From contig MU271230.1 of assembly GCA_021432655.1 (NCBI GenBank), positions 1 through 64,000 on the forward strand: 64,000 bases of DNA, written 5' to 3'. This stretch comes from Atractiella rhizophila (lineage: Eukaryota). The notes beneath the pieces were generated by a model that saw nothing but the letters and a program-made list of their open reading frames with translations, searched no databases and was not told the DNA's origin. A program made the translations under genes and the position numbers. Every line of letters begins with the position of its first letter. The first letter of the stretch is position 1. Below are positions 34,299-47,600 of this stretch, piece after piece.

Positions 34299-34521
34299 TG
34301 TTGGAGATCCGTGGATGTCACTTGTTTGTTCTATTTGCATTGCGTTCCGGATGCCGTGCCAAACATGTGCACTTCACCGCTAGTCCGGAATTATAAGTAT
34401 GCTTGATGTGTTTTCTTTCCTTTTCTTTCTCCCCAATCACATATTCGTTTATATCATTTGCACTCACTCATAAGTGATTGGGGATTGTTAGTGCAAAGTG
34501 GTAGAAAGCACATTTCTCACT
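34299..34521 (+). repeat. 5' LTR of Copia-2
   Basis: Direct repeat of 48282-48504; ends TG...CT. Confidence 0.92.
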
Positions 34522-34533
34522 TGGTAGCGAGAG
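34522..34533 (+). promoter_or_regulatory. PBS complementary to a tRNA 3' end (probably tRNA-iMet)
   Basis: TGGTAGC directly after the LTR, as in Ty1-type PBS sequences. Confidence 0.75.
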
Positions 34534-34563
34534 GTGATCGATCTGCTAAACGTCCATACGGAA

Positions 34564-36130
34564 ATGGCTACGGAAGGAAGTACCACGCCCACGGGTGCCA
34601 CCTCTGGAAGACAGGACCCTTTCAACACACCCCAGGAACCAAGGACGCACCTCCACTCTTCGGTTCAACATTCACAGTGCCCTACTCCGTTTCCTCATCG
34701 GCAAAAGTCGCTTCACAGATCACTATGCCTACAGCTTCAGTACAAACCATCGTCGCAAACGAGAAAATCCCTCCTCTCATGCTGCAAAACTCCACACGCT
34801 TCTTCAGATCTCTAAAGTCTATCCTCGATGCAAACAACGTTGGGATACTATTGGACGGTATCGTGACCGAACCGATAAGCCCATTGTCAGCAGAAGGGTT
34901 GACAGTGACCCAAATGCAAGAAAACATGGCAAAAGGAATAACGTCGAAGACAAAGACTCCTTCCGACGAGGAGAACACTGAGTTTATTCGCGCACTTTCG
35001 AATTGGAGGAGGATGGCCGCTGTGGCTATGATGATACTCAAGCAGTCTGTGGGAGAGACAGCGAGAGCATTCATTGAGGACCAAGTGGATCCCATCAAGG
35101 CCGTGAAGATCCTTAAGGACAAATACGAAACAAAAGAATACACAGATACAGCGTACCTCCTTCGACAATTCTCAAATTACACCCACGAATCGAGCAAACT
35201 TCCTCTGACCGAGTGGATCGCGAAGCTGCACGAGAGAAGGAGGATCTTCAACGAGTCTCAAGATGACCTTACGATCAACGACACTTTACTCTCCTACACC
35301 CTTGTTAACGGATTGAAGGACGAAACTAGAAGATGGCTGTCGTCCACAGGGGTGAACCCAGCAGACTTAGCGTCTGTCATCCATAGGCTTACAGCGGAGG
35401 AAATAGCCCTGAAGAACAGGGAGGAGGGAAGGATGGGCGAAAAATCGAACGTTGCTCTCCTCGCAAGGATGGGAAAGAACAAGGGATTTGGAAACCTCCC
35501 GTCGAGTGATCTTGCGTCAAGGATTTCCAGCCAGTCCTCCAGCTCCAGTTCAACGTCTACGGCGGTCGATCGTGGGGAGAATAAAAAGAGGACGGAACGA
35601 TCACAACGCCCTCTTTTAAATCGATGGCTCCGAACGCGAGATCCATCAAAAACTGGGGAAATTGGCCTCACGGAACCACCGAGAGAGGACAGTTTAGACT
35701 GGGTCCTCGCCAGTGTTACCATTGCGGAAGAGAGGGACACTATGGCCGGAACTGTAGCCTCGATCGAAAACAGCAAATGGCATCTCTTGCAGCAATCTTC
35801 AAGAAATACGACATTCATCTCCCACGACAAGAAGCAGCTGCATTCATTGCCACGGTTGCGGATGAACAGCACGCGAATCCAATCCGCACGTCTGATACAG
35901 ACCCATCGACTGGAAGACCATACTCTGAGCAACCAGGAGTGGTCTCTGAGCATGAAGCAGTGGATGGGGCATACTTCGTAGGAGTAGATGAAGACAGTGG
36001 CTTAGAGCAGAGTTTGGGGCTTATATGGTGTCCTTGGACGAAGGAGGGTCGTACTCGCTGGAGGAGGAAGACGAAAGTCAAGAGAAGGAGGGCATAGTTC
36101 TGATAACGGAAACAGAAGAAGAGAGCTCAA
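34564..36130 (+). pseudogene. Copia-2 gag (frameshifted)
   Basis: Copia gag-like ORF 34458-35981; CCHC knuckle CYHCGREGHYGRNC in a shifted frame. Confidence 0.85.
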
Positions 36131-36582
36131 TGTCAGGCTTGCCCCTACGCATTATCGAAACGTACCATTTGAAGTCACGTGACCTATTTCATCACGTCGA
36201 AGGATCACGTGCCTCCCCATCGCCGCTTTGCTCACATTCGCGCTGATCGCCGCTTTCCCTATCTTACACGAATCGCCGCTCAGCAAACCTTATACATTTC
36301 GCCGGTCTGCACCGTCTCTATTCTTGCTTTATTGTCCTTTCTCACCTGTACTGCTCAGTATGCCTTATTTCCGAGTATTCCCTTTATTACTTTCCTGATC
36401 TAGCTATCTTACGCGTTTCAAGCAACGTATGTTACAGTTTATGGCAGTGCCTTTACTTATGTATATATACATCAAGATGTAGTGGTGGTGACCTCAGAGT
36501 ATTCTCTTAGGTTTACCTCCACTACAGGTTAGTCTTCTCATGCCATACTATTCTCTTAGGTTTACCTCCACTACAGACGCAT
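36131..36582 (+). repeat. Older, 3'-truncated LTR of the chromovirus family
   Basis: Starts TGTCAGGC after TSD CTCAA; more diverged than the LTR pair; stops at ...GACGCAT where the next LTR begins. Confidence 0.9.
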
Positions 36583-37074
36583 TGTCAGGCTTGCCCCTAC
36601 GCATTACCGAAATGTCCCATTCGGAGTCACGTGACCTACTTCAGTACATCGTAGGATCAAGTGCCTACACGTCGCCGCTTTGCGCACGTTCGCGCTGACC
36701 GCCGCCTTCTCCCATCTCACTCGAATCGCCGCTCAGCAAACCTTATAAATTTCGCCGGTCTGCACCGTCGCCATTATTGCCTTGTTATCTTTTCTCACTT
36801 GTTCCGCTCAGTATATCTTATTTCCGAGTATTCCCTTTTTTGCTTTCCTGATCTAGCTATCTTACATGTTTCAAGAAACTTATGTTACAGTTTATGGCAG
36901 TGCCTTGGCATATGTATATATACATCGAGATGTAGTGGTGGTGACCTCAGAGTATTCTCTTAGGTTTACCTCCACTACAGGTTAGTCTTCTCATGCTATA
37001 CGATTCACTTAGGTTTACCTCCACTACAGACGCATCGCCTATCGGCGACCGCACATAGTGTCAGCCCTAACAGA

Positions 37075-37084
37075 AGAATACTCT
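37075..37084 (+). promoter_or_regulatory. Putative self-priming PBS (Tf1/sushi type)
   Basis: AGAATACTCT is the reverse complement of AGAGTATTCT (36949-36958), which lies 34 nt downstream of TATATATA in the LTR; there is no TGG tRNA-type PBS. Confidence 0.65.
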
Positions 37085-37116
37085 CCTTACCTTTTCAGAA
37101 CAGCAAAACTTAAAAA

Positions 37117-38320
37117 ATGTCGGAAGTTTGGGGAGACATGGAAACGCGCGAACCGCCGACGAGCGAAGAACGCATCCAGCACTTAGAAAGGATGTTCCAA
37201 ACTCTACACCTCACAACTGAAAAGCAATTCAAAAAACTTAAGAGGAACCCGGGCTTCTATAACGAGGAACAAGTATTAGCAAGATGTGAGGGAAAGAGCC
37301 ACAGGATAGAAAACCGTAGCGGACGTTGCCCCTCCAGATCTGAAACAGCGCAGCTGAAGGTACAGTAGCCCCAGGAACCGGGATACTCGCACACCTCGCC
37401 GCAACCCACTGCCTAGCCGCTGGCCACTGTTCCGCCGCGAGCCAGCTATGCTATGCCCGCAAGACAAGAGAGACACGAAACTCCTAAAACTCGACAGGGA
37501 AAAACGTCTTTTACATAAAACACCAGGCAGAAAGCAGCTACCCTACAAAGCTTTCTTCCAACTTACTCGTCTAAGAAGGCGTAGTTAAGCGGCTCTAAAA
37601 AGAAAGGTCAGAAGGTCGCTAAAACCCTTGAGAGGAACCCAATGAAACTCCACATCCCGTCCTAACTCAGGAGCAAACTTCTTTTTTTACTCCCGAAGTA
37701 GTAGTTTCAGTCGAACTAAACGGTTAAGAAGTTTGAACTACTACATCCAAAGATCCAATGGGAAAACAACCTCCCTTCTATAAAAACAGACACGTTACTC
37801 GAACACCAGACAGAACGTCTTTGCGCGAAATTTGAGGCTGTTTTTAACAAGGGTGCCTTAAACAAGGAGTAAAAGCTGTTCAGCCGCGTTTTAGGGTCGC
37901 CGCTTAAAAAGGCGTAGAGGAAGAAAGTACATTCTTTCCCATTTATCCTAAAAGCTAAAAAGCCAGCCCTTAACCGGACCTTGACATCTGCACATCTGCA
38001 TTTAAAGCGCATTTTTACAGCCTCGACACAACCCATGAGGAAACTTCTAACTTCCACCCCGTTCAAACTATGGACGTATACCACGTTGAACCTGTCAAAC
38101 CCCATGTCTTCCTCTTCCCATTCAGACTCCACAACCCAGACAAGCGCTATTTTTCCCCCTTCACCAGGGTGATAGAGATCCTCCTCCATCAGACCTTAGA
38201 TCGTTAACATTTTAAGCCAGTAAACACAAAACCTGCAGCCTGGGGTCAACGCGTTAAAGCTAGCGTAAGACCCTCCAAACGCGTAAAACAACCAACTTCG
38301 AACAATACTCCAGAACAAGC
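37117..38320 (+). pseudogene. Chromovirus ORF1/gag region, heavily mutated
   Basis: ATG 45 nt after the 5' LTR; one frame carries ten TAA/TAG stops between 37366 and 37917. Gag identity rests on position only. Confidence 0.55.
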
Positions 38321-39028
38321 NNNNNNNNNNNNNNNNNNNNNNNNNNNNNNNNNNNNNNNNNNNNNNNNNNNNNNNNNNNNNNNNNNNNNNNNNNNNNNNN
38401 NNNNNNNNNNNNNNNNNNNNNNNNNNNNNNNNNNNNNNNNNNNNNNNNNNNNNNNNNNNNNNNNNNNNNNNNNNNNNNNNNNNNNNNNNNNNNNNNNNNN
38501 NNNNNNNNNNNNNNNNNNNNNNNNNNNNNNNNNNNNNNNNNNNNNNNNNNNNNNNNNNNNNNNNNNNNNNNNNNNNNNNNNNNNNNNNNNNNNNNNNNNN
38601 NNNNNNNNNNNNNNNNNNNNNNNNNNNNNNNNNNNNNNNNNNNNNNNNNNNNNNNNNNNNNNNNNNNNNNNNNNNNNNNNNNNNNNNNNNNNNNNNNNNN
38701 NNNNNNNNNNNNNNNNNNNNNNNNNNNNNNNNNNNNNNNNNNNNNNNNNNNNNNNNNNNNNNNNNNNNNNNNNNNNNNNNNNNNNNNNNNNNNNNNNNNN
38801 NNNNNNNNNNNNNNNNNNNNNNNNNNNNNNNNNNNNNNNNNNNNNNNNNNNNNNNNNNNNNNNNNNNNNNNNNNNNNNNNNNNNNNNNNNNNNNNNNNNN
38901 NNNNNNNNNNNNNNNNNNNNNNNNNNNNNNNNNNNNNNNNNNNNNNNNNNNNNNNNNNNNNNNNNNNNNNNNNNNNNNNNNNNNNNNNNNNNNNNNNNNN
39001 NNNNNNNNNNNNNNNNNNNNNNNNNNNN
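38321..39028. other. Assembly gap
   Basis: Run of N. Confidence 1.
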
Positions 39029-39029
39029 T

Positions 39030-41492
39030 CCTTGGGATCACGCGATCAACCTCATACCCGAATCACGACCATATGCGGGACCGGTCTACCCCTTGAAAAG
39101 AGACGAACAAGCGGCGCTCGACCAATTCATTGACGCCGAACTAAGCGCCGGCCGTATACGTCCTAGCACAGGTGAACATGGAGCCTCAGTTTTCTTCACG
39201 CACAAAAAAGACTCATCTGAACTTCGTCCCCTTTTCGATTATCGGAAGCTGAACGAAGCCACAGTCAAAGACAAGACCCCACTCCCCATTCAGGCTGACC
39301 TCTTTTCCATGGTCTCAGGTAAAAAGTTCTTCAGCAAGATTGATCTGAGGAAAGGGTTCAACAACGTTCACATCAAAGAAGGAGACGAACACAAAGCGGC
39401 GTTTCGCACAAATCGAGGACTTTTCGAACCATTGGTGATGTATTTCGGACTCTGCAACTCGCCGGCGACTTTCCAAGCTTTCCTGAACTCTATTTTCCGC
39501 GCGATGATCGCCGCTGCGTTCATCTTCATATACATAGACGACATCCTAATTGCGACAGAAACTGAAGAAGAACACTGGGAACGCGTTCGAGAAGTTTGTC
39601 AAATTTTACGCGAAAATGGGCTTTATGTTAACTTACAGAAATGTGTCTGGTGTCAAAGCGAAGTAGAGTATCTAGGATTGATCATTACCAGCAGAGGGAT
39701 CGAACCCGATCCAGTAAAGGTTGCAGGAGTGATGGATTGGCCGGAACCAAAAAACATGAAGGAAGTCCAAATGTTCCTTGGTTTCGCTAATTTCTATCGC
39801 CGCTTTTGTGACAGATTTAGTCACATCGCAAGACCTTTATATGAACTGACCAAAAAGGAGGTTTCCTGGGTCTGGGGGGTAGATGAGCAACGTTCGTTCG
39901 CCGCTTTGAAGCAGCTCATGATTTCGGCGCCCGTTTTAGCGCATCCTGAACAAATAGGACGATTTCTGCTTGAAGTAGAAGAACAAGTAGTCAAAGCCTT
40001 GAGAGAGATCCTAGACGAACCAGTCGACGCAATTCGCCGACGGGAGTGGCAAGAAGTCGATGGCGCTGTCTATTTTCGCGGTAAACTCTACATTCCCCGC
40101 GATGACGAAATCCGCCGCTCGATTTTGCAAGACCTGCATGATTCGCAAATCGCCGGTCATCCAGGCGTGAAATCAACGACAGCTCTAGTAAAAAGGTACT
40201 ACTGGTGGCCAGGATTGGCGCATTACGTTCGCCGATATGTCGGCGCCTGTCACACTTGCCACAGAACGAAGAACTTTCCTTCCCCACCCATCGGGTTTTT
40301 GCAACCAAATGACATTCCCACACGTCGCTGGCAAATTGTCAGCATGGACTTGGTTGGACCACTCCCAGAATCTGGGGGGTTCGACACAATTTTCGTCATA
40401 GTAGACAGACTCTCAAAACGCACCCATCTCATCCCCACCCATTCGACGATGGATGCAGAAGGCCTTGCAAGACTTTTTCGCGATCATGTATGGAAGTTAC
40501 ATGGACTTTTCGACGTCGCAATTTTTGATCGTGGCAAAGAATTCGTGTCCAAATTCACATCTGCACTTTTTCGCCTATTAGGTATCAAAGGTTCACCATC
40601 GACAGCCTATCACCCACAGACTGATGGTCAGACTGAACGTATGAACCAAGAAGTTGAACAATATTTGCGCATTTTTTGCAACCACCTTCAGGACAATTGG
40701 GTAGAAGGACTCCCCAACGCAGAATTTGCGCTCAACAATCGCGTCAGTTCGGCGACGGGCGTAACTCCATTTTCACTCGACTGTGGTCAACATCCACGCA
40801 TGGCTTTTGAACCCATCTCCGACGAGGACGTTCCCGCGGCGGCGCATTTCGTCGAAAAGATGCAAATCGCCGACCGGGAAGCACGAGCGGCACTTGAGCA
40901 AGCAGCAGATCTGATGGCAAAACATTATGACAGAAAACGCGCACCGGCGCCCGAATATCATGTCGGCGATTTCGTCTGGTTGAGCGCGAAAAACATCAAA
41001 TCGACGAGACCTGTCAAAAAGTTGGACGACAAATGGCATGGCCCCTTTCGCGTTTTGCAAGTTTTGGGTCCCCTCAACCTTAAACTCGAGTTGCCATCCT
41101 CATGGAAGATACATCCAGTGTTCCACGTGGGCCTAATACGAAAAGTCAACGAAGACGACATCCCTGGCAGAGTTCAGCTGCCCAAACCACCTCCAGAATT
41201 GGTGAATGGAATTGAAGAATTGGAAGTAGAAAAAATTGTTGATGGGAAATGGTTCGGTACCCGAAATAGAGTTTTCAAATATCGCGTTCGATACAAAGGG
41301 TATTCACCATCTGAAGACGAGTGGATCAACATCACAGATCTAGAAAATTCCCAGGATGCTATAAAAGACTATCACACTGCACACCCTCTCGCAGTTCGTC
41401 CCGATTCCATACCGAACTCCGCAACAAATCGCCCAAATACGCGTTTTCGTAACCTTCGACGAAAACGCGCTGAAGGGTCTTCCTCACTTTAA
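39030..41492 (+). CDS. pol: Chromovirus pol (RT, integrase, chromodomain; RNase H core deleted; 5' end in the gap)
   Basis: RT KIDLRKGFNN..YIDDIL; integrase HDSQIAGHPG..CHTC, SMD/FDRG/QTERMN, GPF; chromodomain EVEKIVD..YRVRYKGYSPSEDEW. Confidence 0.93.
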   Translation, partial: PWDHAINLIPESRPYAGPVYPLKRDEQAALDQFIDAELSAGRIRPSTGEHGASVFFTHKKDSSELRPLFDYRKLNEATVKDKTPLPIQADLFSMVSGKKFFSKIDLRKGFNNVHIKEGDEHKAAFRTNRGLFEPLVMYFGLCNSPATFQAFLNSIFRAMIAAAFIFIYIDDILIATETEEEHWERVREVCQILRENGLYVNLQKCVWCQSEVEYLGLIITSRGIEPDPVKVAGVMDWPEPKNMKEVQMFLGFANFYRRFCDRFSHIARPLYELTKKEVSWVWGVDEQRSFAALKQLMISAPVLAHPEQIGRFLLEVEEQVVKALREILDEPVDAIRRREWQEVDGAVYFRGKLYIPRDDEIRRSILQDLHDSQIAGHPGVKSTTALVKRYYWWPGLAHYVRRYVGACHTCHRTKNFPSPPIGFLQPNDIPTRRWQIVSMDLVGPLPESGGFDTIFVIVDRLSKRTHLIPTHSTMDAEGLARLFRDHVWKLHGLFDVAIFDRGKEFVSKFTSALFRLLGIKGSPSTAYHPQTDGQTERMNQEVEQYLRIFCNHLQDNWVEGLPNAEFALNNRVSSATGVTPFSLDCGQHPRMAFEPISDEDVPAAAHFVEKMQIADREARAALEQAADLMAKHYDRKRAPAPEYHVGDFVWLSAKNIKSTRPVKKLDDKWHGPFRVLQVLGPLNLKLELPSSWKIHPVFHVGLIRKVNEDDIPGRVQLPKPPPELVNGIEELEVEKIVDGKWFGTRNRVFKYRVRYKGYSPSEDEWINITDLENSQDAIKDYHTAHPLAVRPDSIPNSATNRPNTRFRNLRRKRAEGSSSL

Positions 41493-41700
41493 GGGGCCCA
41501 ACACCCCTATATGCCTTGCCGGGTGAAATCCTAGTCTTTGATACTTAGGTCAAGGCAAGGCGCCGACTTGTTCCTCAACGGACAAGTCGGCGACTTGGTC
41601 GTTGGTGAGCCCATTCGCCGCCCGTCAAAGACGAATGCTCGTTGCGTTCTCGCACCATCGCCAATGTCGCATTCATGAAAATTGTCCTCAATCGCGAGGT
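41482..41700 (+). ncRNA. Structured cis-RNA motif, copy 1 (unknown class)
   Basis: Five or more stems conserved with copy 2 through compensatory substitutions. Confidence 0.6.
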
Positions 41701-41708
41701 CCCCTCCC

Positions 41709-41924
41709 CCTCACTTTAAGAGGTCCTACTCCTCTACATGCCTCGCTGGGTGAATCCCTAGTCACATTGTTGAACATAGGTCTAGGCGAGGCGCCGGTCT
41801 GTTCCTCAACGGACAGATCGGCGACCGGTTTGTCGGTGAGTTACTCGCCCCATTTTCACAAACGGTTGCTTACTGCACCAAAAACAATACCGGTCAAACT
41901 TCAAAAACCCCTCAATTGCGAGGT
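41709..41924 (+). ncRNA. Structured cis-RNA motif, copy 2 (unknown class)
   Basis: Diverged tandem copy (period 227 nt) that preserves the same stems. Confidence 0.6.
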
Positions 41925-42331
41925 ACACAACGACTTCCCCTCATCCTACACTCTGTTCTGGTTTTGATGATTATTGTCTCCTATTTTTGCTTTTACCTTT
42001 GCTTCCCCATGCTTGATTGCTCGACAACACATTCTTCCACAAAGAAGGCAGACCGGCGACGAGCACACAAATCGCCGACCCGTTATACTGCGCGTTGTGT
42101 CCACGAGCGCGTGGCCCAGGCCTGTTTGGTTGCGAGCTCCAAAATAAGCTTGGGTAGCTAGTGGGAGGAACGCCTGAGGGTCCTCCCCTAGACAGGGGAG
42201 TGTGAGTCCTGCATCACCCTCTTTGCCATTGTTCTCCCCACTCACTACAATCCTTTTGCCACTACGACACATTTACATCTGTCGCCGCCCGGCAATTCGC
42301 CGCTAATACGGAGACGCAAAACGCATACATT

Positions 42332-44034
42332 TCAGAGATCAAAATCACCACTCTGGACTGACTCCTCACTATCGCTGCTGCTCGAAGAAGAAACGGAATA
42401 TGCATCATAATTGGAATTGCCATAGGCCTCTTGGGCTAAAGAAGGGTTTAAGTCGCCTAGTCGAAACTCAATTTCGCCGATACGACGTATTTTCTGCAAC
42501 TGGCGATGGGTCAGGTGCCCTACGATGCCTAAACAACATCTAGATAGTCAGACAGATCGCCGAAAAACGGATGAACTCACCCTACCAGTCACATCGGCGA
42601 TCACACCTTCCACAGCCGAATCTTCACTAGCCCCATCCTCCGCGGCTCGATCATCCTGCCTCCTTTTATACAATTCCATCTGCAACTCAGCGGCCTTCAG
42701 AGCGTCCGCCGCCGCTTGTGCATTCAATTTGGCGGCAGCTAGCATGGTTTGCGCGAAGTCCAGGCTGAATGCCTCAGAGTACAACCGGGCGGCGCTCAGC
42801 AATGATTGCGAAGGAGAATCCTCGTCGACATCCGAAATGTTCTCGTAATTGCTTTCGATGAAAGCCGATGGACGTTTTTTCCCGTCGCCGATACGTTTAG
42901 GATGGAATGAAGTCGACATTACGACTAGCATCGAGAGTTCCCGCAAATATCCCAATGGCAAAACCTCACACNNNNNNNNNNNNNNNNNNNNNNNNNNNNN
43001 NNNNNNNNNNNNNNNNNNNNNNNNNNNNNNNNNNNNNNNNNNNNNNNNNNNNNNNNNNNNNNNNNNNNNNNNNNNNNNNNNNNNNNNNNNNNNNNNNNNN
43101 NNNNNNNNNNNNNNNNNNNNNNNNNNNNNNNNNNNNNNNNNNNNNNNNNNNNNNNNNNNNNNNNNNNNNNNNNNNNNNNNNNNNNNNNNNNNNNNNNNNN
43201 NNNNNNNNNNNNNNNNNNNNNNNNNNNNNNNNNNNNNNNNNNNNNNNNNNNNNNNNNNNNNNNNNNNNNNNNNNNNNNNNNNNNNNNNNNNNNNNNNNNN
43301 NNNNNNNNNNNNNNNNNNNNNNNNNNNNNNNNNNNNNNNNNNNNNNNNNNNNNNNNNNNNNNNNNNNNNNNNNNNNNNNNNNNNNNNNNNNNNNNNNNNN
43401 NNNNNNNNNNNNNNNNNNNNNNNNNNNNNNNNNNNNNNNNNNNNNNNNNNNNNNNNNNNNNNNNNNNNNNNNNNNNNNNNNNNNNNNNNNNNNNNNNNNN
43501 NNNNNNNNNNNNNNNNNNNNNNNNNNNNNNNNNNNNNNNNNNNNNNNNNNNNNNNNNNNNNNNNNNNNNNNNNNNNNNNNNNNNNNNNNNNNNNNNNNNN
43601 NNNNNNNNNNNNNNNNNNNNNNNNNNNNNNNNNNNNNNNNNNNNNNNNNNNNNNNNNNNNNNNNNNNNNNNNNNNNNNNNNNNNNNNNNNNNNNNNNNNN
43701 NNNNNNNNNNNNNNNNNNNNNNNNNNNNNNNNNNNNNNNNNNNNNNNNNNNNNNNNNNNNNNNNNNNNNNNNNNNNNNNNNNNNNNNNNNNNNNNNNNNN
43801 NNNNNNNNNNNNNNNNNNNNNNNNNNNNNNNNNNNNNNNNNNNNNNNNCACCTCTTCCTGCACCTCATCACAAAATTTGACATACAGAGGATAACACCTT
43901 TTCCCCCACTCCAGCACATCGGCGAATCGCCCAAAGTTCACCTCTTTCGCCTTTTCCACATCCCAATAAACAGTGCTCTCCCTCCTATCTTTGTTCGCCA
44001 GAACGAAGTCGAAGAGTTGCGCGTCGGTTGACAT
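42332..44034 (-). CDS. Putative antisense accessory gene of the chromovirus (gapped, possibly spliced)
   Basis: GCAAAA-ATG at 44034 is open into the gap (MSTDAQLFDFVLANK...). A frame of at least 137 codons with a coiled-coil-like segment follows the gap, then a candidate GT..CTGAC..TAG intron and a last exon of about 65 codons. Confidence 0.5.
42972..43848. other. Assembly gap
   Basis: Run of N. Confidence 1.
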
Positions 44035-44653
44035 TTTTGCAAGGAAAGAAGAGAGGGTGATGGTGGTAGAACTGGAAAATTTTTCGCCCAAGCTAGCCGC
44101 AAACCTTAACCTTAAAATTCCGTGACTCGCGTACACTAGCCAGAATTTTGGGGGGTGTTGTCAGGCTTGCCCCTACGCATTACCGAAATGTACCATTCGG
44201 AGTCACGTGACCTACTTCAGTACATCGTAGGATCAAGTGCCTACACGTCGCCGCTTTGCGCACGTTCGCGCTGACCGCCGCCTTCTCCCATCTCACTCGA
44301 ATCGCCGCTCAGCAAACCTTATAAATTTCGCCGGTCTGCACCGTCGCCATTATTGCCTTGTTATCTTTTCTCACTTGTTCCGCTCAGTATATCTTATTTC
44401 CGAGTATTCCCTTTTTTGCTTTCCTGATCTAGCTATCTTACATGTTTCAAGAAACTTATGTTACAGTTTATGGCAGTGCCTTGGCATATGTATATATACA
44501 TCGAGATGTAGTGGTGGTGACCTCAGAGTATTCTCTTAGGTTTACCTCCACTACAGGTTAGTCTTCTCATGCTATACGATTCACTTAGGTTTACCTCCAC
44601 TACAGACGCATCGCCTATCGGCGACCGCACATAGTGTCAGCCCTAACACTCAA

Positions 44654-47600
44654 ATGACACCATAGCAAGACCTTTCCATTTGGATAGCGCGGCGTCGATT
44701 CACTTGACCGTCTGTCCATGGCTTCTCCACGATTACAAGGTCTTGGAAAAACCTATTGGGATCCATGGAGCCTGGAGATCAAGGGGACAGGCTGTTGGAA
44801 AAGGGAACCTTAACATCGTATTCTTCCTTGAGGACAGGAAGACGAGCAAGGGGATTATTCGAAACGTTTACTACGCTCCTAGACTCAGCGTCAATCTCAT
44901 CTCCTCAAAGGTTCTCATGCAAAATGGAGTAGTTTTCGGAAACGATACGGAACGAGTTTATCTACACAGTTCGAATGGAGAAAGGTTTGGGATCGCCCAT
45001 ATTGGTGATACCCTAATCACACTCCAGGCGAGTTATCTACCTGCATCAGCACCCCTCTCCAATGATCCCACGACTATTCCTCATACGTCTTTTATCGCAG
45101 TGCCTCTTCGTATATGGCATCAACGTCTAGCACACCCAGCAACGAACGACTGCGACTAGCAATCAAAAATGAAATTGTGTCTCTGTCAGATGTAAAGGAT
45201 AGCTGCAATGCATCCCTTTTAGACAATTGCTTGACATGCGCAAGAGGGAAAGCTACATACGGAAGGAGTAAGGGACCTGCAAAGATTAGAGACCATGGAC
45301 CAGGGAGGACGTTGGGATTCGATACATGGGGTCCATCGACAGTTGCAAGTATACAAGGATTCCAATATGTTTTCGGCATCGTCGACGAGGCGTCCAGATA
45401 TATGATTGTAGGAGGAATGAAGCTCAAATCCGAGGCACCATCAATCTTGGATGGGGTCAGAGCAGCTATCAAAAGGGACCTTGACGTAGACGTCCGTAAG
45501 ATCCGCCACGACCAAGCCATGGAATTCATGTCGCTTGCAATGAAAAATTGGTGTGACAAACATCAGATTTCGAACATGAAGACCATGCCGTATGCACACG
45601 ATCAGGGCGGAATGTGGGAGCGACAATGGTATACCCTTTTCAACATGGTTCGATGCCTCCTCCTCGATTCCGGACTCCCTTTGTACCTTTGGTATGAGGC
45701 GTTGAAAGTTGCCGTCCATATGAAGAACATCATGCCTACAAAAGCAAACGAAAGAAATCAATCACCCTACGAAAGGTTTCATGGAAGACAGCCTGATATG
45801 ACGCACATCAGGGTATTTGGTTGTCTCGCTGCAGTTACCATCATGCCTGAGCAAAGGGATTCGAAGCTATTACCCCGAGCAAAGCTGATGTATTTCATTG
45901 GATATGTCCCTGACGGTTATGGATGGCGATTCTGGGACCCCGCAAGGCGGACAATAGTAGAAGGCAAATCAGCTAGATTCTTCGAAAACAAGTTCTATTC
46001 AGAAAGAGGCTATCAAGAAACAGAGAGAATACGGAACCTGGAGCCTGATGATTTCTTTGACATGCTGATACCACGGAATGATAAAGAAGAGGGAGAGAAA
46101 GGATGGCTAGAGGCAGAGCTGGGTGGACAACGTATAAACACAACCGAGATAGAGGCGGACGATGTTCGAACATCAAGTCCTGCGGTACCTGACACACCGG
46201 AATCTCCTACTCTGTCAAGAAAGCACTTAGACAAAACTCAAGCGGCTGTAGAACAAGGGGGAGAACCAGCTACTACCGACACGCTACAACCTCCAGAAGG
46301 GGACCCCTCGTTTGTCCAAGATCGAGTTGCGGAAATCGAAGCATCCATATGGAAGGCGAGGGTACACGAAGAAGAAATTGCGAGATTCTCCCCTCAACGA
46401 CAACAACGGCTGGGGAGAGGGATACGTCGCGCAGGGCAGAATAGGTGGGATTACAAGAAACTTCACGAGTGAGGTCTATATTACGCTCAAGTGTACGGAA
46501 ATGATGAAGTCGTCGCACCTGCAAGGGAATTGGTGGCGGAAGTGAAACGAAATCCATCAGTCTACAAGGTTACGCTTGAGGACGATATGGATAATTATGA
46601 AGACCACGAAGTCTACAGGACAGGCAGTATCGATGAGCCAACGTTCAAGCAAGCAATCGCTGGACCTGACCGCGATAAGTGGTTAGCTGCGATGGTGGCG
46701 GAGATGGCGGCACTCGAGTTGATGGTGATGTGGAAAGGTGGATTGAAGGAGTTGCCTGAGGGGAGAAAGGCTTTAGGTGTTAAATGGGTGCTGGTGGTAA
46801 AGCGTGATCCGAGAGGGGAGGTGATAAAGTACAAGGCACGCCTGGTCGTACGAGGGGATCAACAAAAGGCAGGCCTAGACTACACGGAGACTTGGGCACC
46901 AACCATGCGGACTGCATCTGTCAGAGAGCACTGTCCATCTCAGCCCAAAAGGGATGGGTCAGGCGACAATTCGACGTCAGCAACGCTTTCCTGAATGGTG
47001 ACCTCGAAGAACAAGTGTTCATTAAACAGCCACCCGGTTTCATCGACGAGGAACGCCCAAAAGGCGTTTACGAATTAGGGAAGGCGCTGTACGGGTTGTG
47101 TCAGGCAGGGCGACAATGGTGGAAGAAGATTCATGGAGTACTTACTCAGTTGGGTTTCGTATGGTCTACTGCGGACGAAGGCATGTACATTCTGCATGAG
47201 GATGGCAACACCCTCATCCTCTGTCTCCACGTTGATGATGGATTAGTCGTTGGAAGCTCACATGCCCTCATGGTCTCCATCTTTCAAAAACTGGGTGAAT
47301 TCTTCGCCTTAAGGGCTGGAACAGCGTCCGTGTTCTTGGGAATCCAGATCGAGGCGAAAGATGGATCCAGTATGGTCAAGATACACCAAGGAGGTTACGC
47401 TAGGAAGATAGTGCAGCGATACCTGGGGGACAACGTATCCCCAGTTCAGATGCCATGTGACTCCAACAAACGACTGTCCCCCGAAATGTCACCCAAATCT
47501 GCTGAAGAACGAGAAAGCATGCGACATATACCTTACCGAGAGGCCGTTGGAGCACTCATCTACCTTACGACATGCACTCGCCCTGATATCGCTTATGCCG

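Follow-up and report, generated by a model that had tools for sequence, protein, structure and literature searches.

Tandem hairpin modules that covary at the pol stop codon of an Atractiella rhizophila chromovirus: a candidate family of retroelement cis-acting RNA

In the fungus Atractiella rhizophila, a Ty3/gypsy chromovirus bounded by long terminal repeats (LTRs) carries, directly after the stop codon of its pol gene, two ancient, diverged head-to-tail copies of an RNA module in which three hairpins (here called P2, P3, and P4) have kept their pairing through compensatory base changes. The element lies on the forward strand of contig MU271230.1 (assembly GCA_021432655.1), whose positions 1 to 64,000 constitute the window analyzed here and provide all coordinates. 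P2 to P4 very probably form a selected, sense-strand, cis-acting RNA structure, and the module is a candidate new RNA family among the cis-acting structured RNAs of retroelement 3' regions. A first-pass annotation, made from the DNA letters only, had proposed an undescribed retroelement cis-RNA at this place; the RNA is indeed structured, covarying, and devoid of an Rfam match, while one of the five stems listed in that annotation is not conserved. While much is known of the structured cis-RNAs that retroviruses use for export, stability, or packaging, their counterparts in fungal LTR retrotransposons have hardly been studied. Here a module of ~110-130 nucleotides (nt) has kept its pairing through ~19% divergence between its copies. 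The units and their parts are the following.

Positions 41482-41708, forward strand: unit 1, consisting of a core (41482-41609) and a fast-evolving linker (41610-41708)
Positions 41492-41508, forward strand: P2 of unit 1, a stem of 5 base pairs (bp), AGGGG/CCCCU, closing a 7-nt loop and beginning with the final A of the stop codon; pair probability 0.89-0.97
Positions 41513-41561, forward strand: P3 of unit 1, with the 8-bp outer helix GCCUUGCC/GGCAAGGC; pair probability 0.86-0.89
Positions 41562-41591, forward strand: P4 of unit 1, a 12-bp hairpin with the invariant loop CUCAAC; pair probability 0.67-1.0
Positions 41604-41609, forward strand: GGUGAG of unit 1, with two alternative partners, CUCACU at 41483-41488 (helix P1) or UUCGCC at 41614-41619 (helix P5, the hairpin of the first-pass annotation)
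Positions 41709-41935, forward strand: unit 2, with P2' (41719-41735), P3' (41740-41792), P4' (41793-41822), GGUGAG (41835-41840), and CCUC/GAGG (41910-41923)

The claim that two diverged copies of ~220 nt stand right after a chromovirus pol is borne out by a repeat search, which returned direct-repeat families with spacings of 231 and 227 nt and 81-82% identity, by a MAFFT alignment of unit 1 with unit 2 (81% column identity overall and 86% over the first 150 nt), and by the Pfam domains of the upstream reading frame. The tandem pair was missed by the program TRF, which gave only an unrelated 13-nt array; no third unit adjoins the pair on either side, and no other copy is present in the window. 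The pol stop codon (TAA, 41490-41492) falls within the first 12 nt of unit 1, and the module begins 8 nt before it. Both units start with CCTCACTTTAAG, which occurs exactly twice in the window and in unit 1 includes the last three sense codons of pol together with the stop, confirming the earlier remark that the stop codon is part of a conserved 5' motif.

RNAalifold recovers the three stems in the aligned units together with their base changes. P2 reads AGGGG/CCCCT in unit 1 vs AGAGG/CCTCT in unit 2 (one double change), P3 reads GCCTTGCC/GGCAAGGC vs GCCTCGCT/GGCGAGGC (one double change and one change from C-G to U-G), and P4 reads GCCGACTTGTTC/GGACAAGTCGGC vs GCCGGTCTGTTC/GGACAGATCGGC (two double changes and one change from A-U to G-U) with an identical loop CTCAAC. 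For a non-circular test, the 25 pairs that reach a probability of at least 0.6 in unit 1's own ensemble, which are exactly P2, P3, and P4, were scored at the aligned columns of unit 2, where 4 had changed on both sides in a compensatory manner and 2 on one side with the pairing kept, 19 were unchanged, and 0 were broken. When the same 35 substitutions (22 of them transitions) were placed at random, zero broken pairs had a probability of 0.00015 and at least 4 compensatory pairs a probability of 0.0028, and both together were seen in 0 of 200,000 placements. Sliding the partners by 1-3 columns lowered the pairing from 94% to 31-50% and the compensatory pairs from 4 to 0. The proposal that the stems are kept through compensatory changes around an invariant CTCAAC loop thus stands for P2, P3, and P4.

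The same three hairpins recur in every fold, with pair probabilities of 0.58-1.0 in a 521-nt context (41440-41960), and the folding energies of the single units lie below those of shuffled sequence (z of -3.8 and -4.85). Inside P3 of unit 1, an internal loop with GGGUGAA, which is invariant between the units, is followed by an inner CCUA/UAGG helix and an apical loop containing UUGA.

The strand on which the structure functions can be judged from its wobble pairs. All six non-Watson-Crick pairs in P1 to P4 (unit 1 contributes two of them and unit 2 four) are G-U on the forward strand and none is A-C; on the reverse strand, these six pairs would become A-C mismatches. The fold of unit 2 is 7.7 kcal/mol more stable on the forward strand (-55.2 vs -47.5 kcal/mol), and unit 1 folds about equally on both (-55.3 on the forward vs -57.5 kcal/mol on the reverse strand). 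The earlier reading of the G-U pairs as a pointer to the sense RNA is therefore supported, and the strand evidence as a whole favors the sense RNA, though it is not proof.

Relatives were available as contigs of other sequencing runs, of which 18 contain parts of the stretch; contigs of four runs were compared with it, and linkage of variants is readable within a single contig record only. In run X1, 589 contig pieces fall on the stretch and the family is highly repeated; their summed depth is similar over both units, and the tandem pair is therefore a feature of the family. A rhizosphere metagenome contig (X3 record 9, 41454-41833, no gaps) shows 14 differences, all of them listed. T41571C and A41582G together convert one P4 pair from U-A to C-G (the same changes occur in 13 and 14 X1 contigs, respectively), the other 12 touch no P2-P4 pair of either unit, and none of the 14 breaks such a pair. 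The cores (253 nt) take five of the 14 differences and the 99-nt linker takes nine (Fisher p=0.004). G41785A, carried by 6 X1 contigs, turns the closing pair of unit-2 P3 (41747-41785) from U-G into U-A; with the C-G of unit 1, this closing pair runs through the full series C-G, U-G, and U-A across copies. X6 record 13 has 9 differences, 8 of which are listed; 5 lie in coding sequence (135 nt) and 1 lies in the core (128 nt).

The relatives also bear on the sequences that follow P4. GGUGAG can pair upstream to form P1, which would close P2-P4 into a four-way junction and is chosen by RNAalifold and by the core-only folds of both units; in the full-context ensemble its probability is ~0. The alternative P5 reaches 0.21-0.44 in unit 1 and 0.55-0.85 in its unit-2 version (GGTGAG/CTCGCC). 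Neither helix has covariation, in the case of P1 because both strands are invariant. The first-pass annotation had counted GGTGAG/TTCGCC and GGTGAG/CTCGCC among the conserved stems. Both are present in this copy, yet they are not conserved in relatives: C41618T, found at full depth in X1, X3, and X6, weakens the unit-1 hairpin, and 4 X1 contigs and an X5 contig, alike up to 41842, have different sequence from 41843, removing the 3' arm of the unit-2 hairpin. At least two subfamilies thus differ downstream of unit 2, whose conserved part ends two bases after GGUGAG. The copies that diverge after 41842 continue with GTCCAGCCC...TGGAC, itself a small hairpin, and the X1 depth falls about five-fold after 41860. 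CCTC/GAGG, the last of the stems previously listed, does occur in both units, but it is invariant and without covariation and says nothing either way.

Known RNA families and distant homologs were searched for with several tools. On both strands of 40500-43000, cmscan with Rfam 15 (4227 models including hammerhead, hepatitis delta virus-like, twister, viral exoribonuclease-resistant RNA (xrRNA), and tRNA-like families) gave 0 matches at E<=10, in agreement with the previous statement that no hammerhead or hepatitis delta virus core is recognizable. Among the functions that had been suggested, a ribozyme has the lowest likelihood, since none of the catalytic-RNA families in Rfam matches. A tRNA or tRNA-like structure was rejected as well, with 0 genes found by ARAGORN in 41300-42100 and with arms of 5, 8 or more, and 12 bp that misfit a tRNA. 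Protein scans yielded 575 relatives in metagenome contigs, the best 80 of which were examined (37-48% pol identity), one locus in viral contigs (41% identity), and 0 confirmed relatives in genome contigs. A covariance model (R1), in which the inner P3 helix is drawn one column off, scores 175-179 bits on the forward strand of the window vs 16 bits on the reverse strand; on the 81 loci (80 metagenome and 1 viral), it returned only two wrong-strand matches of ~11 bits (E ~2-3). A 16-mer of the P4 loop region matched 21 viral contigs by chance, none of them with the stem, and a 35-letter degenerate P4 pattern matched 0 genome and 0 viral contigs. Near the pol stops of 72 loci, none of the 17 occurrences of CTCAAC has a closing stem of at least 5 bp, and CCTCA stands at the stop in 0 of the 72. 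The module, being absent from the best 80 of the 575 metagenome relatives, is thus lineage-specific and restricted to one fungal lineage. Literature searches, within the library covered, turned up no publication on an element of this kind in fungal retrotransposons.

Further candidate roles were tried and rejected. A readthrough or frameshift signal would gain just 13 codons past the TAA before a TAG is reached. A coding repeat is suggested at first sight by a 141-codon stop-to-stop frame over both units, but the frame has no ATG, is out of frame with pol, and differs at about 8 of 22 aligned residues in its best-conserved part (an estimate by eye). Pairing with the 5' LTR or leader, as in cyclization or a bipartite primer site, is not favored by the longest complementary runs, 8 nt for Watson-Crick pairs and 11-12 nt with G-U, which are within those of shuffles.

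The function of the module has to be discussed in the context of the element that carries it, whose features are listed below.

Positions 36583-37072, forward strand: 5' LTR, ~490 nt, TG...CA, matching 44159-44648 at an offset of 7576 with 1 mismatch
Positions 39033-41492, forward strand: 3' part of the pol open reading frame (ORF), encoding reverse transcriptase, a short RNase H remnant, integrase, SH3, and chromodomain; stop TAA 41490-41492
Positions 41440-41469, forward strand: P0, a perfect 11-bp hairpin CGCGUUUUCGU/ACGAAAACGCG with the loop AACCUUCG, seen in the minimum free energy (MFE) fold of 41440-41960
Positions 42548-44037, reverse strand: antisense ORF of ~495 codons, ATG 44035-44037, stop 42548-42550, with its middle inside a run of N (42972-43848)
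Positions 44159-44648, forward strand: 3' LTR, with a G-rich polypurine-like run ...TTTTGGGGGGTG just before it

The chromovirus is identified by Pfam, which finds RVT_1 (E-value 9.6e-34), Integrase_H2C2 (1.5e-19), SH3_Tf2-1 (1.7e-15), rve (5.8e-10), and Chromo (2.8e-08) in pol, and by the flanking LTRs. The nearest named pol relatives in a large protein database are fungal (Berkeleyomyces, Lyophyllum, and Pleurotus) and reach no more than 55% identity across the last 400 residues. Compared position by position, the LTRs differ by a single mismatch in 490 positions; the RT_RNaseH_2 match in pol covers 35 of 100 profile positions only, and the ORF table shows no intact gag ORF in 37073-38320. 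The chromovirus copy therefore looks recently inserted but non-autonomous. The RNase H domain seems to be largely deleted (window 39870-40100, residues ~281-358 of the 819-residue pol piece). P0, which the first-pass annotation had missed, is contained in the stretch that encodes the basic C-terminus of pol and precedes unit 1 by 13 nt; its stem carries T41447C in one relative (run X6).

The 2,666 nt between the pol stop and the 3' LTR are occupied by the antisense ORF, and the sense RNA therefore has ~2.7 kb that is untranslated after its last stop. The N-terminal 62 residues of the antisense protein are 95% identical to P0121, and its C-terminal 140 residues are 86-89% identical to P0121 and P0122, which are hypothetical proteins of Atractiella rhizophila (515 and 569 residues). 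Neither the pieces of this ORF nor P0121 match Pfam, and the Atlas structure model is of low confidence (pLDDT, the predicted local distance difference test, 0.42) and offers nothing usable. We regard this ORF as a probable orphan accessory gene carried by the retrotransposon family. In the long 3' untranslated region (UTR), two short motifs that may be pyrimidine-rich protein-binding sites are enriched near the stop: in 479 nt, CCTCA occurs 7 times (1.05 expected), with three copies per unit (unit start, P4 loop, and a small 3' hairpin), and CCCCT occurs 5 times (0.58 expected), although these counts are inflated by the duplication. GGTGA occurs 4 times in the same stretch (0.63 expected).

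Repeated structured RNA elements for export, stability, or packaging are found in the 3' part of retroviral RNAs, such as DR1/DR2 of Rous sarcoma virus (RSV) and the constitutive transport element (CTE) of Mason-Pfizer monkey virus. The fungal module is likewise a repeated structured element in the 3' part of a retroelement RNA, but the Rfam scan gave no similarity, and its position relative to the ORFs and its architecture are different. Compact multi-helix elements in tandem behind the last stop, diverged in sequence and alike in fold, are also known from the xrRNA and dumbbell elements of flaviviruses; unlike those, the module has no Rfam match, is composed of three hairpins with possibly a four-way junction and no supported pseudoknot, and resides in an integrated fungal LTR retrotransposon. 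A retroelement cis-acting RNA placed directly after a termination codon that precedes a very long 3' UTR is described in two reports (PMC4764554; PMC5580461). In RSV, the RNA stability element (RSE) follows the gag stop codon directly, extends over 400 nt, and protects the RNA from decay through PTBP1 (PMC4764554). Like the RSE, the module stands directly at a stop codon, followed by ~2.7 kb of 3' UTR; unlike it, the module consists of tandem covarying hairpins, whereas the RSE spans ~400 nt with pyrimidine-rich PTBP1 sites and acts in a vertebrate host (sequence similarity between the two was not sought). The plant Retand elements are described as having an extended pol-to-3' LTR region that contains tandem repeats, along with an ORF running antisense to gag-pol (PMC11963269), which resembles the arrangement of the tandem units (41482-41935) and the antisense ORF (42548-44037) seen here. 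Retand elements are plant non-chromoviruses whose antisense ORFs mostly have a TRP28 domain, and their repeats are described as arrays expanding the region, the abstract of that study mentioning no conserved RNA pairing; the present element has a chromodomain, an antisense ORF without a Pfam match, and two diverged paired units. Judged by such analogies, the module resembles the RSE in position and the flavivirus xrRNAs in tandem layout and is a member of neither.

On this basis, we tentatively propose that the module may be an RNA stability element that shields the genomic RNA from decay at the termination codon. With one long ORF end and ~2.7 kb of 3' UTR, the sense RNA is a predicted target of long-3'UTR (UPF1-dependent) decay. 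A host RNA-binding protein, brought in by the hairpins together with the repeated YCCUCA motifs (three in each unit), would bind just behind the ribosome as it terminates and keep the decay machinery off the genomic RNA. Because its first bases are codons, unit 1 would be partly unwound by the terminating ribosome, and unit 2 would serve as a permanently folded copy. Such a role explains why the module begins exactly at the stop codon and is followed by a long 3' UTR, and the duplication may find its reason in the partial melting of unit 1 by the ribosome. In a more far-reaching form, for which we see little likelihood, the pair would be the first decay-blocking RNA structure of an LTR retrotransposon, stalling or excluding the host's 5'-3' or UPF1-dependent decay machinery in the manner of the tandem xrRNAs of flaviviruses, and a stable 3' RNA antisense to the accessory ORF would regulate that gene.

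Several observations weigh against a selected structure or against its role as a decay shield. The covariation is weaker when the raw MFE fold of unit 1 is used: its 42 pairs include 4 compensatory, 4 one-sided, and 5 broken ones (probability of at least 4 compensatory pairs 0.008), the broken pairs being situated in inner P3 and in a small unit-1-specific hairpin. Pair-breaking variants are possible among the X1 copies, as the variants listed are 40 of 179 rows. Most X1 family copies seem to diverge after 41842 and may have 3' UTRs of other lengths, and the element copy in the window itself looks defective, with a truncated RNase H and no intact gag found. Fifty-four more distant chromovirus loci have no unusual folding after the stop (mean z -0.41 vs -0.39 in coding sequence), which rules out a general post-stop structure among these loci; a structured stop-codon element is therefore not a general need of chromoviruses. 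The CCUCA enrichment, inflated by the duplication, amounts to just three independent sites per unit. Furthermore, the RSE acts through pyrimidine-rich single-stranded sites and not through stable hairpins, to our knowledge no PTBP1-like shield is known in fungi, and the need for stable hairpins rather than open pyrimidine tracts is left unexplained.

Other explanations of the module have to be weighed against a decay shield. The most serious of them, although it has only a modest chance of being correct, is a packaging or dimerization signal, in which the hairpins, above all the P4 loop CUCAAC, would be bound by the element's Gag/nucleocapsid and the P3 apical loop (UUGA/GUUGA) would kiss the P4 loop (UCAA/UCAAC) of the same unit, of the other unit, or of a second RNA, thereby joining two genomes. 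The P4 loop is identical at 6 of 6 positions between units that are 19% diverged, and two copies would give multivalent binding. The loop-loop pairing goes back to the first-pass annotation, which had noted a TTGA that could pair with TCAA; the complementarity does exist in both units (4 nt in unit 1 and 5 nt in unit 2, GUUGA/UCAAC), and T41542G in the P3 apical loop (X3 and 6 X1 contigs) extends the unit-1 match from UUGA/UCAA to UUGAG/CUCAA. As a match of 4-5 nt in a loop of 9-14 nt arises by chance in ~1 of 10 cases (our own estimate) and true covariation is lacking, this pairing is suggestive only. The known packaging signals of retroviruses and of Ty1/Ty3 are mainly located in the 5' region, and complementarity of the module to the 5' LTR or leader does not exceed that of shuffles. 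Export of the unspliced genomic RNA from the nucleus by a CTE-like element, whose structured repeats would recruit an export receptor, is improbable. It would suit a duplicated element in the 3' untranslated part of a retroelement RNA with conserved internal-loop (GGGUGAA) and apical-loop sequences, but the Rfam scan detected no sequence or model similarity to known transport elements, and the exact start at the stop codon would be left unexplained. An xrRNA-like block, at which the tandem structures would stall the exoribonuclease Xrn1 and leave a stable 3' fragment carrying the antisense of the accessory ORF, is similarly doubtful: tandem compact multi-helix structures directly behind the last sense stop parallel the duplicated xrRNAs of flaviviruses, and the core folded alone is a closed multi-way junction in both units, but the viral xrRNA families of Rfam gave no match, the closing helix P1 has virtually no probability in the full context, and no supported pseudoknot protects the 5' end (a candidate between the P2 loop and GUUGG, seen by eye, is not kept in unit 2).

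Two further explanations dispense with a cis-acting sense RNA. In the first of these, the module would have no function of its own, being an ordinary tandem duplication, as is common in the region from pol to the 3' LTR, and its quasi-palindromes would stay paired because of template-switch (hairpin-templated) mutation in the course of replication or reverse transcription and not because of selection. The presence of only two units and the absence of the module from all more distant relatives examined are compatible with this. Templated correction gives perfect Watson-Crick arms, yet six of the pairs are G-U, all on one strand; moreover, three separate hairpins all stay paired, and the cores evolve more slowly than the linker and, judging from X6 record 13, no faster than the upstream pol codons. 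We thus regard an absence of function as rather unlikely. The second, an action on the opposite strand or in the DNA itself, as terminator, 3'-end signal, or insulator that limits the sense-antisense overlap between the convergent pol and antisense-ORF units, is suggested by the position between the two ORFs (pol stop at 41492 and antisense stop at 42548) and by the comparable fold of unit 1 on the reverse strand. It is the least probable of these alternatives, given the A-C mismatches that would arise there, the poorer reverse-strand fold of unit 2, the low score of the covariance model on that strand, and the distance of ~600 nt from the module to the antisense stop.

If the module is a decay shield or an exonuclease block, it would represent a solution at which retrotransposons and RNA viruses arrived independently, and a small portable RNA part would become available for fungi; if it is a packaging or dimerization signal, it would provide a handle on the assembly of chromovirus particles.

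Some minor observations concern the surroundings of the module. Two runs of N lie inside the element (38321-39028, 708 nt, and 42972-43848, 877 nt) and hide the protease/early reverse transcriptase region and the middle of the antisense ORF. In X6 record 14 (window 41603-41640), sequence like the last 30 nt of the LTR (...CCCTAACAG) is joined directly to 41603 (TGGTGAG...). This junction was rejected as a primer-binding site and could be a nested insertion or an assembly chimera; a deletion derivative is also possible. Directly upstream of the 5' LTR, at ~36131-36581, a further LTR-like copy resembling a solo LTR is 85-90% like the LTR. Together with this copy, the chromovirus is nested in a copia-type element (34458-36100 and 44647-45159), whose flanks show a weak Retrotran_gag_2 match upstream and Pol_BBD downstream of the chromovirus in Pfam.

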